Assembly (NCBI GenBank): GCA_035501235.1
Contig: DATJWN010000361.1
Coordinates: 11,948-75,947 of the forward strand
Reading direction: 5' to 3'
DNA from: Reyranella sp.
GTDB taxonomy: Bacteria; Pseudomonadota; Alphaproteobacteria; Reyranellales; Reyranellaceae
Length of the DNA stretch: 64,000 bases
This document shows positions 1,576-40,585 of the stretch, piece after piece. Under the pieces are notes generated by a model. The model was not told where the DNA came from, searched no databases, and saw only the letters and a list, made by a program, of their open reading frames with translations. Position 1 is the first letter of the stretch. Each line of letters begins with the position of its first letter. Made by a program: the position numbers and the translations under genes.

Positions 1576-2904
1576 TCACGCGATGCATGCCTCGAATACG
1601 CGGCGGTAATTGCCGCCCAGAAGCTTGGAGATTTCAGCGGGCTTGAAGCGCGAGGACAGGGCGGCAGCGAGTTGCGGCAGATCGGCATAGCTCGGCAAGC
1701 AGCTTGGGCCCAGGAGGCCCAACTGATCGGTGCCCATGCCGACGTGATCGATGCCAACGGCGTCGACCATGCGGGAGATGTGGTCAGCATAGGAACTGAC
1801 ATTGGCCACCTCGGCCACGGGCCAGATGCCAATGACGCCGCCGGTCGAGGCGATGGCGCGGGCGTGGTCCGTCGTGATCAGCCGCGTCCAGGGATAGGGC
1901 CGGTTGCTGAGCGCGGTGTGCGACAGGACCAGCGGCTTGGCCGTCGTGGCGACGGCGCGCTTCACCAGATCGAAGGTGCCGTGCGCCACGTCGACCACGA
2001 TGCCGAGCGTATTGCAGCGGCGGATCACTTCGGCGCCGAAATCGGTCAAGCCACCGTGCACGGCGGGCTCGGTCTGGATGTCGCCGAGCTCGTTGGGGTG
2101 ATAGTGCGTCAGTTGCAACTGGCGAAGCTGCCAGCGCTGATAGGCCTCGTCGAGGCGTTCGATCTTGCCCTCGAGCCAGTCACCGCCTTCGGAAGTCACG
2201 ATCACCGACGGCTGGCTCGACCGCGCCACGCGCAGATCGGCCGCCGTCTTCACGATCGGCATCGACTGGCTGCGGGCAAGCTCGTGCAGCTTGGCGAACT
2301 GGACCTTGCTGAAATCGTAGAGCTCACCCGGGTGGGGCTCGCGGACAGGCCGAATACGTCCGCTCTTGGAGCTGATGATCGGCGAGTCGCCCACGATCGC
2401 CAGGCAAATCGCCGACAGGCCGCCTTGGCGCATTGGAGTCGCCACATCGAGCAGGGGAATCTTGCTGCTGTAGCTGGCGCGGATCAGGTTGCCGGCATGG
2501 CTGTGGATGTCGGCGGCCATGCCGTCGGTCGCTTGCGCGAGCGCCGGCACGGGCAGGCAGAGGAGCGGGCTGGCCGCCAGCACGGCGCGGCGCGAGAGGC
2601 CAGGCAGCAGCTCGGCGGCGAGGAGCTGGTAGCGCCAGCCCTCCGGATCGGTCGCGACATGCCATCTGCCCTTGAGGCGCACCCGGCCGTCGCCGAGCTT
2701 GATCGGCCGGCCGGCCACGATCTCGACGACGGCGAGCGGATTGTTCGGCACGCAGCCCGCGCAGCAGCCGGGCTCGGCCATCAGCAGGAAATGGTCAGCC
2801 GCCGGCGTGGGCAGGACCGTGACCGGCCAACCCGAGATCTCGACTGTCCTGCCCTCGACCCTGTCGGCCTTCGACGTTCCAAGGTCATGCCACGACAGGC
2901 GCAT
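1576..2904 (-). CDS. Membrane dipeptidase (peptidase M19) with an extra N-terminal Cys-rich DUF3299-like domain and an internal Tat-like segment
   Basis: M19 motifs DIHSH, SEGGD, LTHYHPNELGD, VDVAH, SHTA, DHVGMGTD, KLLGGNYRRVF; N-terminal 100 aa with FLLMAEPGCCAGCVP, then LSRRAVLAASPLLCLPVPALAQ. Confidence 0.85.
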   Translation of the reverse strand: MRLSWHDLGTSKADRVEGRTVEISGWPVTVLPTPAADHFLLMAEPGCCAGCVPNNPLAVVEIVAGRPIKLGDGRVRLKGRWHVATDPEGWRYQLLAAELLPGLSRRAVLAASPLLCLPVPALAQATDGMAADIHSHAGNLIRASYSSKIPLLDVATPMRQGGLSAICLAIVGDSPIISSKSGRIRPVREPHPGELYDFSKVQFAKLHELARSQSMPIVKTAADLRVARSSQPSVIVTSEGGDWLEGKIERLDEAYQRWQLRQLQLTHYHPNELGDIQTEPAVHGGLTDFGAEVIRRCNTLGIVVDVAHGTFDLVKRAVATTAKPLVLSHTALSNRPYPWTRLITTDHARAIASTGGVIGIWPVAEVANVSSYADHISRMVDAVGIDHVGMGTDQLGLLGPSCLPSYADLPQLAAALSSRFKPAEISKLLGGNYRRVFEACIA

Positions 2905-2913
2905 CGGCTCCCC

Positions 2914-3975
2914 CTAAAGCTTGGGGGGCGGATAGTACGGCTTTTCCCCCAGGGCTTGCACGCGCTGCCAGAAGCCGGGCCCGCTTGCCTTGCCGACCTC
3001 GTCGAGATCGGCGGCCTGCCGCCACATGCTCCACGATTCCGGATGAAGCGCACTCGCTTCATCCATCTGGCGATCGCCCTCGACCGTGTTGCCATGCAAG
3101 CGCAGCCAGACGCCCAGCCTGAACCGCGCCCGCGCCTCGGCGATCGCGGGCGTCACCTCGGGCAGACGCTCGCGCACCTCGCCTTCATCGAGTGCGTATT
3201 TGCCGGTCGTCACCCAGGCGCGCACGGCATTGAGATAGGCCTCGCGTGCCGCCTGACGCGCCGCCTGGTCCTCCGGCGACATGGTCCGCGTCTTGAGATC
3301 CATGCGGCGGAAGTGATCGGTCGAGCCCGCCGTCTCGGGCGGCCGCACGATCTTGCCGCCCTCGTCGATCCAGATCGCCTGCGGCACGTTCACGAGATTG
3401 TAGAGATCTTCCAGCCGGTGCTCGACGTCGATCAGCTGCCAGTACTCGGACTTGGCGGCATCGATCCATTGCCGCGCATGGTCCGCGCCGCGGCTTTCCT
3501 CCGCGACGGCCACCACCATGAAGTTCTTGTCCTTGAGCTCGCCGTAGAGTTGCTGCCACACGGGCAAGTCAAACCGGCAGCCTCACCAACTGGCCCAGGT
3601 GGCGACGAAGACCTTCTTGCCCCTGAGCTGCGACAGCGTGCGCGGCACGCCGTCGATGTCGGGCAAGGTGAAGTCAGGTGCCTCGCGATCCTTCAGCGCC
3701 GCATTGCGCTCGTCGGGCGGCGCGCCCAGAGCCCACACGTCGCGATCCTGATTGGAGACGGCGGGTCCGCCGAGCTTGTGCCAGAAGGCCGCGACATCGA
3801 CCTCGTCACCCGCCACCGCCGATGGTGGCAGCGGCACGCAGAGCTCGTCGCGGCACATGCCTTCGGGCTTGAGCGTCCAGCCGGTCACCTTCTCCGCATC
3901 GGCCGCCTTCATCCAGAGGCCGTGGCGCGTGGCGACCGTGAACTCTTCGGTCGGGGTGAGAATTGTCGTCGTCAT
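2914..3975 (-). CDS. TlpA/AhpC-TSA-like redoxin, probable selenoprotein (in-frame TGA at 3585-3583 read as Sec), 353 aa
   Basis: ORFs 3583..3975 and 2914..3567 are in the same frame: APDFTLPDIDG...LRGKKVFVATWASW-TGA-GCRFDLPVWQQLY...FMVVAVA. The TGA occupies the first Cys position of the thioredoxin-fold active site. Confidence 0.78.
3537..3582 (-). promoter_or_regulatory. Candidate bacterial SECIS hairpin immediately 3' of the in-frame UGA
   Basis: Hand-folded: UUGCC/GGCAG upper stem closing a CGUGU loop that starts 21 nt after UGA with G at loop position 2; lower pairing UUG/CAA and UGCC/GGCG. An alternative GCUGCC/GGCAGC stem also exists. Confidence 0.5.
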
Positions 3976-4248
3976 GCAGCGACCCTAGCTGAAGCCGGCG
4001 GCGATTGTCATGTCGGGGCCGGCCCCGTTAAAAAAACGGAAAAATATTCAAACGACCCCAGCGCACTAGCGCTAACTGCGCTAACCGCCCCGTCGCCGCA
4101 GTCGATCTGCCCGTCATTGAACCGCCATCGGTAGCGCCTCCAGCGGCCCCGGCATCATCGCCGGACCCGCTTCGTCTTCCGAGAAAGTACATTTACAATA
4201 AACCAACGGTCGACGCAAGCGCCCTCCCGAGCGCCTGCCCGACGACCG

Positions 4249-5880
4249 CTATTTGGGAACGGAGATCGTCACTTCCTTGGAGGTGATGAACTCCAGCAGC
4301 ACGGGCACGCCCTTCCTGGTCTGCTCAATGCCGCGCTTGATCGCCGGAACGATGTCCTCGGGCTTGGTCACCCGCTCGCCATAGCCGCCGAAGGCGCGCG
4401 CCATGGCGGCATAGTCGCCGGAGATATCGGTGCTGCGATACTTCTCGGTCGACACCTTCATGATGTGAAGCTCGATCGCCATCGAGAAGTTGTTGAGCAG
4501 GATCGACATGATCGGGATGCGCTCGCGCACCGCGGTCTCGAAATCCATGCCGGTGAAGCCGATGGCGGCGTCACCCCACACGTTGATGCAGAGCTTGTCG
4601 GGCATGGCGAGCTTGGCGCCCATGGCGAGGCCGAGGCCGTAGCCCAGTTGCGTGGTCTTGCCCCAGCCGATGTAGGTGTGCGGCTGCGTCGTCTTCCAGA
4701 ATGGCGAGAGCTGATCGCGCGGAGAGCCGGCATCGTGGGTGATGATCGTATTCGCGACATCGACCGTGTGCTGCAGGTCCCACAGGACGCGATAGGGATT
4801 GAGCGGCGCCTCGTTGTTGGTGAGCTTGGGCATCCACTCCTTCAGCCACTCGTCCGCGATCTGCTTGATCTCGGCCGCAACGGGAGCCGCGTCGCGCTTC
4901 TTGGCACCTGCCGCCTTGCACGCCTCCACCAGCGCCGCGAGCGTCAGCTTGGCGTCGCCCACCAGCCCGTACTTGATCTTCACGTCCTTGTTGAGATGCG
5001 CGGGATCGAGCGTGGCATGGATGATCGTCTTACCCGCCGGCATGGAGATGCCGAAGTTGGTCTCGGTGAAGGAGCAGCCGATGCCCAGGATCACGTCAGA
5101 CCGGTCGAGGAAGGAACGCACCGCCTTCGGATAGGCGCGGCCGCCCGATCCGAGCGACAGGGGATGGGTCTCGTCGAAGCAGCTCTTGCCCTCGAGGCTG
5201 GTGCAGACCGGAATGGCCAGCATCTCGGCGAGCTCCTTCAGCTCGGCATAGGCCTCGGCCCAGTGCACGCCCTGGCCCGCATAGATGACCGGCCGCTTGG
5301 CCTCCATCAGCACCTTGGCCGCTTCCTTCACCGCCGCCGGATCGGGCCCGTACTTGGTGACGACCACAGGCTCGTAGTTCAACGGATCGGGCGCGTCCTC
5401 GGCATAGGCGTCGTTGGGCAGCTCGATGATCACCGGCGAGCCGCGGCCGTTGCGCAGCAGGCTGAACGCCCGGCGCATGATGTTGGCGATTTCCTTGCCG
5501 TTCGTGATCGGCTCCGCATGCTTGGCGACATGCGCCATGGCGAGCGTCGAGTTGAAATTGGGCGGCACGTGCGCGATGCGGCGCGGATAGCCTTGCGGGA
5601 TCACCAGCAGCGGGATCGATTCGCCATAGGCCTGGGCGATACCGCCATAGGCGTTCTCCGAACCCGGGCCGCTCTGCATGCAGAACACGCCCATCTTGCG
5701 GCCCTTGGTGAGGCGCGACATGGCATCGGCCATGTGCAGGCCGATGCGCTCCTGGCGCACGATGATCGGCCGGATGTCGACGGCCGCGCAGGCCTCGATC
5801 AGATGGTTGACCGGATAGGCGAAGAGATATTCGACGCCTTCCTTCTTGAGAATGTCGGCGATCGCCGGTCCGGTTTTCAT
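4249..5880 (-). CDS. Thiamine pyrophosphate-dependent enzyme (acetolactate synthase-like family)
   Basis: RQERIGLHMAD, QSGPG and the TPP-binding WGDAAIGF...LLNN motif; 543 aa. Confidence 0.92.
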   Translation of the reverse strand: MKTGPAIADILKKEGVEYLFAYPVNHLIEACAAVDIRPIIVRQERIGLHMADAMSRLTKGRKMGVFCMQSGPGSENAYGGIAQAYGESIPLLVIPQGYPRRIAHVPPNFNSTLAMAHVAKHAEPITNGKEIANIMRRAFSLLRNGRGSPVIIELPNDAYAEDAPDPLNYEPVVVTKYGPDPAAVKEAAKVLMEAKRPVIYAGQGVHWAEAYAELKELAEMLAIPVCTSLEGKSCFDETHPLSLGSGGRAYPKAVRSFLDRSDVILGIGCSFTETNFGISMPAGKTIIHATLDPAHLNKDVKIKYGLVGDAKLTLAALVEACKAAGAKKRDAAPVAAEIKQIADEWLKEWMPKLTNNEAPLNPYRVLWDLQHTVDVANTIITHDAGSPRDQLSPFWKTTQPHTYIGWGKTTQLGYGLGLAMGAKLAMPDKLCINVWGDAAIGFTGMDFETAVRERIPIMSILLNNFSMAIELHIMKVSTEKYRSTDISGDYAAMARAFGGYGERVTKPEDIVPAIKRGIEQTRKGVPVLLEFITSKEVTISVPK

Positions 5881-25337: not shown

Positions 25338-25808
25338 TCATTTGAGAGCGAGTCGGAGAACCACGGCATCGACAGCGAGATATGCGCCGCGCATGTAGTA
25401 GCCGCGCCGTCTCCCGACCTCCTTGAAGCCGGCCTGTGCATAAAGCGCCTGGGCTGCCGGATTGTCGGCGGCCACTTCCAGGAAGAGCGTTGCCGCGCCC
25501 CGCGTGCACGACGCTGCGATGATCTCGCCCAACAGGGCCCGGCCTGCACCGCGCCGACGATGGTCCGCCGAGACGGCGATGGTCAGCAGCTCGGCCTCGT
25601 CGGCGGCGACGCGGCACAGGGCGAAGCCGATATCCATCCCGTCGCTCCGGAGGAACAGGCCGAAGACGCCGGGCGAGACCAGCAGTTCGGCCATGTCCTG
25701 CCGCGTCCAGGCGCGCTCGCCCATCACCGCGATACCCTCGCGATGGAAGCGTGCGGCGAGATCGAGATCGGGCGCGCCGAACGGACGAAAGGCGAAGAGC
25801 GCGCTCAC
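25338..25808 (-). CDS. rimI: Ribosomal-protein-alanine N-acetyltransferase
   Basis: ADEAELLTIAV, RRRGAG, LFLEVAADN, RRRGYY; follows tsaB. Confidence 0.9.
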   Translation of the reverse strand: MSALFAFRPFGAPDLDLAARFHREGIAVMGERAWTRQDMAELLVSPGVFGLFLRSDGMDIGFALCRVAADEAELLTIAVSADHRRRGAGRALLGEIIAASCTRGAATLFLEVAADNPAAQALYAQAGFKEVGRRRGYYMRGAYLAVDAVVLRLALK

Positions 25809-26474
25809 TCAATCGACCGTCAATCGCGTGCCGTCGGGCGCGGTGACGTTGACACCGCGCAGATAGACCGGTCGCGGCAGGCCTTCGGTGCGGTTGCGTT
25901 CGCGCCAGCGCTCGATGCCCTCCTTCAAGGCAAGCCGCGCCACGACGGACGCGTCGGGCCAGGCAACGTCGGCTTCGGCGCCCGGAAGCAACGGCGCCAG
26001 CGCCCCGGCTTGGGGCCCGATGATCAGGCTGGATCGTCCGGCCAGTCGTTCGGCGAGCGCCGCGGTCGAGGCGAGGAACGGACTTCGCGGCGCCTCCGCC
26101 GTGGCGCAGAACCAGTCGCCGAGATGGCTGTCGATGGCCGCGACCGCGAGACGGCCGCTCTCGGGCGCCTGCGCGAGCAGGGTCTCGGTGGTGGCGATGC
26201 CGGCGAGCGGGATGGCAAGAGCGACGCTCAACCCGCGCGCGGCGGCAAGGCCCACGCGCACGCCGGTGAAGCTGCCGGGCCCGATCGTGGTTGCGATCAT
26301 CGAGAGCGCGCGCTTGGGCACGCCGGCCTTGTCGAGCAGCTCGGCGATCGCAGGCAACAGGCGTGCAGCCTGCTCGCGGCCTTCCTCGCGATGGACGGCC
26401 AGCACCTCGCCGTCGCGCACCACGGCAAGCGTGAGGCCGCTCACGGCGCAATCGTAGGCAAGGACGAGGCTCAT
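25809..26474 (-). CDS. tsaB: t6A tRNA modification protein TsaB
   Basis: VLAYDCA, TIGPGSFTGVRVGLAAARGL, PRPVYLR. Confidence 0.92.
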   Translation of the reverse strand: MSLVLAYDCAVSGLTLAVVRDGEVLAVHREEGREQAARLLPAIAELLDKAGVPKRALSMIATTIGPGSFTGVRVGLAAARGLSVALAIPLAGIATTETLLAQAPESGRLAVAAIDSHLGDWFCATAEAPRSPFLASTAALAERLAGRSSLIIGPQAGALAPLLPGAEADVAWPDASVVARLALKEGIERWRERNRTEGLPRPVYLRGVNVTAPDGTRLTVD

Positions 26475-40385: not shown

Positions 40386-40419
40386 GAAAAGCCCCCGACC
40401 GACAGGACGGGGGCTTTTT
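40386..40419 (-). terminator. Intrinsic terminator (attenuator) in the metX leader
   Basis: AAAAGCCCCCG-loop-CGGGGGCUUUUCGUUU between the riboswitch and the ribosome-binding site. Confidence 0.8.
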
Positions 40420-40427
40420 CGAGCGCT

Positions 40428-40484
40428 CCGACCTTTTAGCGGGGATTAACGTGGCCGCAAGCCGGTCGGCTCAAATTCCACGGA
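40428..40484 (-). promoter_or_regulatory. SAM-II (SAM-alpha) riboswitch upstream of metXW
   Basis: CGUGG-AAUUUGAGCCGACCGGCUUGCGG-CCACG-UUAAUCCCC-GCUAAAA-GGUCGG; P1 stem plus CCGACC/GGUCGG pseudoknot pairing. Confidence 0.9.
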
Positions 40485-40585
40485 TGGGCCTCTATAAGGG
40501 CCGCACCCGCGCCTTGCAACGGCTTTCCTTTGCGCCCGCTCCCCGGACGTAGTATCGCCTCGCCCGCACAGGACTTTACCGATTT

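Follow-up and report, generated by a model that had tools for sequence, protein, structure and literature searches.

The closest described relatives of the locus reported here are bacterial selenoproteins that carry selenocysteine (Sec, U) in a U-G-C motif. The 'Prx-like (UGC-containing)' family (Zhang & Gladyshev 2008, PMC2398784) was assigned to pfam00578, comprised 46 Sec sequences and 855 cysteine (Cys) homologs in GOS, and was more abundant in non-marine samples. A curated NCBIfam model of 354 positions, NF041054 ('WAxxUGC_long', ResA-like WAxxUGC motif-containing protein, equivalog), uses a cut-off of 300 bits. The consensus bacterial selenocysteine insertion sequence (bSECIS) element of Zhang & Gladyshev (2005), as quoted in PMC13188914, has a loop of 3-9 nt on an upper stem of 4-16 bp, a G among the first two loop nucleotides and a distance of 16-37 nt from the UGA to the loop. 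Here we analyzed a 64,000-nucleotide stretch of a Reyranella sp. contig (DATJWN010000361.1, positions 11,948 to 75,947; hereafter the window), and in particular a gene on its minus strand that is split by an in-frame TGA. This gene is one unit, its UGA is conserved, with Cys as the counterpart in homologs, a hairpin tracks the UGA, and the encoded fold is thioredoxin-like. It is very probably a functional Reyranellaceae selenoprotein gene in which UGA131 is decoded as Sec, Sec insertion itself being what we infer from the comparative sequence record. The gene and its candidate active-site codons are located as follows:

3975..2914, minus strand: putative selenoprotein gene, with ATG at 3975..3973, 353 sense codons when the UGA is counted as Sec, and a TAG stop at 2916..2914
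3585..3583, minus strand: UGA codon 131, presumably read as Sec; in the column of the N-terminal, attacking Cys in the TlpA/ResA/DsbE CxxC motif
3579..3577, minus strand: Cys133 (TGC), presumed resolving Cys of U-G-C; TGC in 49/49 Sec forms

The motif DNA, ACC TGG GCC AGT TGG TGA GGC TGC CGG TTT GAC TTG CCC, translates as T-W-A-S-W-*-G-C-R-F-D-L-P (VATWASW-TGA-GCRFDLP in its wider context). The first-pass annotation of this DNA had reported an in-frame TGA within WASW-*-GC, with 222 codons beyond it and two separate open reading frames (ORFs), and rereading the minus strand reproduced that description exactly. Codon 131 is the only stop ahead of the terminal TAG, with 222 sense codons following it, and the other two frames of the interval contain 8 and 5 stops. 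In the ORF list the gene appears as two entries, one of 130 aa (3583..3975) and one of 217 aa that begins at a TTG (2914..3567). The window has a G+C content of 66.5%, and a scan of its whole length for pairs of coding segments with high G+C at third codon positions, joined in frame by one TGA, returned this gene and the tsaB/rimI junction only. Because that single other pair is an ordinary gene junction (at 25811, within the gene pair 25338-26474 on the minus strand, where the TGA of tsaB is followed by the in-frame GTG start of a rimI-like acetyltransferase), the split frame represents more than chance. Of 52 convincing window ORFs, 29 end in TGA, which is therefore not reassigned genome-wide. 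The selenoprotein frame is closed by a TAG 12 nt before the ATG, and hence there is no longer N-terminus and no signal peptide; the N-terminus itself, MTTTILTPTEEF, is non-hydrophobic, and no signal peptide or membrane anchor is present in the window protein.

The identity of codon 131 was then compared across homologs, where the first-pass annotation had proposed looking for either Cys or TGA. Full-length homologs of about 360 aa and 57-64% identity recovered by protein search read TWASWCGCRFDL at the site where sequences were retrieved, placing Cys in this column, and Cys133 is invariant as Cys across all homologs compared. The closest relatives (80-94% identity), all of which have TGA, are called only as C-terminal fragments of 201-219 aa, as would be expected since a shared stop codon would produce exactly such calls. 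The genome set comprised 29 loci, mostly from Reyranella and Reyranellaceae metagenome-assembled genomes (MAGs), the best genome match to the window being 81%. Among the 28 loci that cover the motif, 27 present TGA at this column, among them loci at 54% identity (Candidatus Cybelea) and 41% (a Blastocatellia MAG); TGT was found in a Sumerlaeota homolog. A metagenome scan seeded with divergent forms contributed 80 further loci, with 21 TGA, 53 TGC and 6 TGT codons at the column. In total, 49 TGA forms, consisting of the window and 48 others from at least three phyla, compare with 63 Cys (TGC/TGT) homologs. The Sec forms originate from soil, freshwater and wetland material, and no plasmid was matched by tblastn of the joined protein. 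The ratio of nonsynonymous to synonymous substitution rates (dN/dS) against 13 Reyranellaceae orthologs was 0.19-0.49 upstream of the TGA (codons 1-130) and 0.15-0.27 downstream of it (codons 132-353), and it was 0.40 on both sides of the TGA against the distant Cybelea ortholog (L024). Both halves of the gene are therefore coding and under purifying selection.

These results bear directly on the possibility that the TGA is a true stop, separating a 130-residue N-terminal protein from a separately started C-terminal protein of 215-217 residues, or belonging to a decaying pseudogene. Gene callers do return only the C-terminal piece of 215-217 aa, from a TTG or ATG start just past the TGA, in hundreds of contigs, and selA, selB and selC were not seen in the window or in 29 related loci. 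A stop at codon 131, however, would divide the thioredoxin fold right at the active site, separating strand beta-1 from helix alpha-1, whereas full-length Cys homologs with the same three domains exist; in at least three phyla the TGA and both of its flanks are conserved by purifying selection, unlike in a pseudogene, and a hairpin containing rare codons, described below, co-varies with the TGA. We hence consider a true stop highly improbable. The probability that sequencing or assembly mistakenly turned a TGC or TGG into this TGA is negligible, given that the same TGA occurs in 48 other independently assembled sequences and that no variant was seen at positions 3583-3585 in related public contigs.

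Decoding of UGA131 as Sec also draws support from the sequence immediately downstream. The first-pass annotation had placed a SECIS-like hairpin within 3582-3537, and a short one is present there:

3567..3553, minus strand: SECIS-like hairpin UUGCC-CGUGU-GGCAG, spanning codons L137-P-V-W-Q141; RNAalifold consensus of 20 Sec-form sequences

The hairpin consists of a 5-bp stem closed by a 5-nt loop whose second nucleotide is G, and it lies 15 nt (stem) and 20 nt (loop) from the UGA, so that its stem, loop, loop G and distance fall within all limits of the bSECIS model as given in PMC13188914. The element shares with E. coli fdhF-type and consensus bSECIS a coding-sequence stem-loop located 3' of the UGA and a small apical loop starting with G then U/G; it differs from them in having a stem at the minimal end of the range (5 bp) and no evident bulged U. 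The stem is paired in 110/110 cells of 22 distinct Sec-form sequences, among which three extra pair types occur (U.G to U-A, U.G to C-G and C-G to U.G), all of them one-sided. The 5-bp stem with its loop-position-2 G is intact in 49/49 TGA forms versus 14/63 Cys forms (Fisher 3e-19, computed on sequences that are not independent). In the Cys forms, the peptide and the codons both drift at the hairpin (DVPAWE, DVKNWE, DLSGWR and others; Leu codons CTC, CTT, CTA). Per-codon synonymous entropy across 26 orthologs reaches its whole-gene minimum at codons 136-146, within which GAC is kept in 26/26, TTG in 24/26, CCC in 25/25, GTG in 26/26, CAG in 26/26, CTC in 24/26 and TAC in 24/24. A claim that the TTT and TTG codons downstream of the TGA are atypical for this genome held for TTG, which makes up 5.3% of window Leu codons and is kept in 24 of 26 close orthologs; TTT at Phe135 proved not to be conserved (TTT 12 / TTC 13).

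Other codons and structures in this region were also noted. Located two codons ahead of the UGA, the Ser129 codon AGT (3591..3589, minus strand) accounts for 2.3% of window Ser codons, yet 41/49 Sec forms retain it; TCG takes its place in the Blastocatellia-type Sec forms, and AGT was found in 0/11 sampled Cys forms. TTT at Phe135 is used in about half of the Sec orthologs, against a 6.4% background. The Ser129 AGT and Phe135 TTT biases may reflect a recoding context effect or simple clade inheritance. Four Cys-form metagenome loci (L285, L325, L355 and L347) present TGC at the site and yet have the full TTG CCN GNN TGG CAG hairpin, which is compatible with recent Sec-to-Cys conversion or with a by-product of L-P-x-W-Q. 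Two alternative structures were rejected. The longer stem preferred by minimum free energy, which pairs CUGCC (alignment columns 9-13) with GGCAG, is broken in 10/110 cells, every Blastocatellia-type Sec form being among those affected, and it would place the loop only 10 nt from the UGA. A lower stem between the UGA region and CUCUAC fails to separate Sec from Cys forms.

The architecture of the encoded protein was established with profile searches, in which Cys was written for the TGA, and with a structure model. Three domains can be delimited:

3691..3975, minus strand: N-terminal domain, residues 1-95; beta-rich, no Pfam family
3340..3690, minus strand: thioredoxin-fold (ResA/TlpA/DsbE-like) domain, residues 96-212; Pfam AhpC-TSA, Foldseek and PDB matches; holds the U-G-C center
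2917..3339, minus strand: C-terminal helical domain, residues 213-353; no significant Pfam match

Pfam AhpC-TSA (PF00578) matches residues 97-210 with an E-value of 2e-15 (57.1 bits, gathering score 26), and Redoxin is matched as well. Searched alone, the N- and C-terminal domains gave no significant Pfam family, the best C-terminal match being TPR_14 at E 0.25; the N-terminal domain includes the invariant Cys41 (3855..3853) and Cys46 (3840..3838) inside a KPEGxCxxxxCxPL motif. Against PDB sequences, phmmer aligned WASWCG-CRFDLP to WASWCGPCRQSFP of the DsbE structure 3gl3 with one residue deleted. The TGA therefore corresponds to the first, attacking Cys of CxxC, in a motif one residue shorter (UxC), which bears out the earlier placement of the TGA where a TlpA-type WASWC has its attacking Cys. 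An AlphaFold2 model of a Cys homolog (P0001, 64% identical to the window protein; mean predicted local distance difference test score 82.7) has three domains, the first rich in beta structure, the second with a thioredoxin fold and the third helical, in agreement with the predicted N-terminal extension and long helical C-terminal domain. Foldseek searches of the PDB with the central domain of this model returned ResA, DsbE and TlpA, with root mean square deviations of 1.4-1.6 A over about 115 residues and E-values of 1e-7 to 3e-10. The window protein hence shares the thioredoxin fold and the W-x-x-W-C active-site context of ResA, TlpA and DsbE (CcmG), but differs from them by its UxC in place of CxxC, by the lack of a signal peptide or membrane anchor and by its extra N- and C-terminal domains. 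It also differs from peroxiredoxins (AhpC/TSA), whose peroxidatic motif is PxxxTxxC, given for Sec forms as PxxxTxxU in PMC13188914; the window protein reads K-V-F-V-A-T-W-A-S-W-U, with no Pro and with Thr 5 residues before U. The Blastocatellia Sec ortholog (L028:9860-11011) and the Sumerlaeota Cys ortholog (L029:912-1925) have hydrophobic, signal-like N-termini, in contrast to the alphaproteobacterial forms, and the UGC family thus seems to include both exported and cytoplasmic members.

The UxC motif, which had been described as unusual, is confirmed but is not new, since it is that of NF041054 and of the 'Prx-like (UGC-containing)' family. The NF041054 model and the window protein have the same length (354 and 353), W-A-x-x-U-G-C at codons 127-133 with a TGA-encoded U and the same three-domain layout, and one alignment spans residues 22-352 and model positions 8-353, with a score of 289.3 bits. 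They differ in that the window protein and its alphaproteobacterial relatives all score 288-295 bits (Reyranella orthologs 288.4 and 292.7, Cys forms 293-295), under the 300 cut-off, and are therefore not named automatically by the model; the TGA orthologs of Candidatus Cybelea (312.8 bits) and Blastocatellia (318.1 bits) pass it. The 'Prx-like (UGC-containing)' family has in common with the window protein the pfam00578/cd02966 thioredoxin fold, the UGC motif and an excess of Cys over Sec homologs, and its listed example, MDE0950781.1, is equated with the present family by motif and Pfam/CDD assignment only. In JGI/IMG and in one NCBI MAG record, C-terminal fragments of Sec-form relatives are named 'hypothetical protein'; the Cys forms carry the name 'peroxiredoxin'. 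A literature search returned no mention of 'WAxxUGC' and nothing linking Reyranella to selenoproteins. The locus is therefore a sub-threshold, so far unannotated clade of a known selenoprotein family, and a case for re-annotation instead of a new kind of protein. Its practical value lies in annotation: the Reyranellaceae, Alphaproteobacteria of soil and freshwater, carry a selenoprotein that the gene calls retrieved here reduce to a C-terminal fragment and that falls about 10 bits short of the cut-off of the curated NF041054 model. The 49 Sec and 63 Cys forms further provide a natural data set for minimal bacterial SECIS requirements and for Sec-to-Cys switching; existing knowledge of selenoproteins is left unchanged.

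Several observations weigh against Sec decoding at this locus. The hairpin is not thermodynamically unusual, with a stability of -4.7 kcal/mol (z -0.37) and a z of -0.16 for the 45-nt fold; it presents no double compensatory change, and shuffles equal its observed covariation score in 277/500 trials. Its stem is also partly dictated by the L-P-x-W-Q peptide, and some Cys forms retain the hairpin. No Rfam family matches it, and a permissive threshold applied to 3450-3650 gave chance miRNA matches only. Because folding energy, covariation and Rfam give none, support for the hairpin comes from its conservation and its association with the TGA. The score of the window protein lies 10.7 bits under the NF041054 cut-off. 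In the window, selA, selB, selD and tRNA-Sec were all missing from the results of tblastn with E. coli SelA, SelB and SelD, ARAGORN and Rfam, and flanks of up to 10 kb around the gene in 29 related loci contained no selA, selB, selC or selD. The selD genes of Reyranellaceae are solitary, with no selA, selB or selU within 6-10 kb, and orphan SelD has been documented in some organisms, including Alphaproteobacteria (PMC5029168).

A proposed search for Sec machinery genes thus succeeded only in part, in that selD is absent from the window but present in related genomes. It was found in the complete Reyranella chromosome NZ_OZ257242.1 (L037) and in the MAG DATEID01 (L045), which holds both selD and the TGA gene (L019), and a protein search indicated that SelD is widespread in Reyranella and Enhydrobacter. 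Scans of the genome collection with SelA and with the SelB C-terminal domain placed no Reyranellaceae among the best 600 matches listed, and the best 120 matches listed for a protein search with Phyllobacterium SelA were all closer Hyphomicrobiales. The UGA might accordingly be read through by other means, through near-cognate insertion of Trp or Cys or leaky termination, with selD kept for selenouridine, a selenium cofactor or the like. Both the finding of selD alone in Reyranellaceae and the documented orphan-SelD organisms are in keeping with such read-through. UGA131, however, falls in the column of the catalytic Cys, and an exchange of Sec and Cys at such a position is the classic selenoprotein signature; the SECIS-like hairpin is strictly kept only with TGA; and NCBI curation and selenoproteome surveys alike treat this TGA family as a family of selenoproteins. 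Moreover, the fact that selA, selB and selC are not among the listed matches does not amount to evidence of absence. Read-through without Sec is in our assessment quite improbable, and the 353-aa selenoprotein proposed in the first-pass annotation is supported by the TGA/Cys column, by the constraint on both sides of the TGA and by the TGA-linked hairpin.

Under Sec decoding, the ribosome would read UGA131 as selenocysteine, with SelB and Sec-tRNA(Sec) being recruited by the UUGCC-CGUGU-GGCAG stem-loop, 15 nt after the UGA and within the coding sequence. The predicted product is a 353-residue cytoplasmic protein of three domains, the central one presenting a ResA/TlpA-like thioredoxin fold with a U-G-C redox center. 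Sec131, at the N-terminus of helix alpha-1, the usual place of the attacking Cys of CxxC, would act as the nucleophile, and Cys133 would resolve the intermediate as a selenenylsulfide. These roles of Sec131 and Cys133 within a UxC loop are suggested by the ResA/TlpA alignment, and the protein may be a thiol/selenol oxidoreductase or a peroxidase-like reductase.

Several side observations concern the selenium genes of related genomes. The N-terminal 140-150 residues of Reyranella SelD (L037:6001-7041) are 84-85% identical to those of Phyllobacterium SelD (Hyphomicrobiales; L218:4-465, L233:1-429), and the full-length identity between the SelD proteins of two Reyranella genomes is 79%, below that N-terminal value, which hints at horizontal transfer of selD. 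In several Hyphomicrobiales (L040, L041, L042, L044, L047, L066), no stop codon separates the selB ORF from the neighboring tRNA-Sec gene, into which it continues, and the resulting 'conserved' SelB tail, SPVGRPDFKSGWG...GGFDSHS, is a translated tRNA gene, an artefact able to mislead protein alignments.

The genes on either side of the putative selenoprotein gene are the following:

1576..2904, minus strand: M19 dipeptidase-like gene; Pfam Peptidase_M19 E 9e-47; starts 9 nt after the selenoprotein stop, behind GGGGGAG
4249..5880, minus strand: thiamine-pyrophosphate-requiring enzyme gene, upstream; NF004807, 858 bits; 273-nt spacer to the selenoprotein gene

About 18 Reyranellaceae loci share the order thiamine-pyrophosphate enzyme, selenoprotein, M19, which does not hold around Cys forms. 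The selenoprotein gene and the downstream M19 gene are probably in the same operon and co-expressed; no link to cytochrome c maturation genes was seen in the neighborhood. The M19 protein has a conserved, Cys-rich N-terminal extension of 100 aa with a PGCCAGCVPNNP motif, and an identity of 56-73% among Reyranellaceae loci shows this extension to be coding. Farther on, in the middle of the ORF and ahead of the M19 domain, comes a twin-arginine-like signal (LSRRAVLAASPLL...ALAQA), and an internal segment of this kind makes for an odd topology. One could imagine that the Reyranellaceae proteins constitute a distinct cytoplasmic UGC branch, in which the U-G-C center, the CxxxxC pair and the helical C-terminal domain operate together with the Cys-rich M19 protein in a selenium-dependent thiol/dipeptide (e.g. 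Cys-Gly-type) pathway, and, separately, that the 15-nt hairpin represents a very short class of SECIS element; we regard both proposals as unlikely. Simple promoter and terminator scans around the gene, including the 3976-4248 spacer, called nothing. This 273-nt spacer (minus strand) contains a T-run followed by a GC palindrome, GGGGCCGGCCCC. The RNAs identified in the window are one tRNA (Gly-CCC) and one SAM-alpha riboswitch, the latter in support of the window being of alphaproteobacterial origin:

40416-40491, minus strand: alphaproteobacterial SAM riboswitch; match to Rfam RF00521 at 45.8 bits (gathering score 36)

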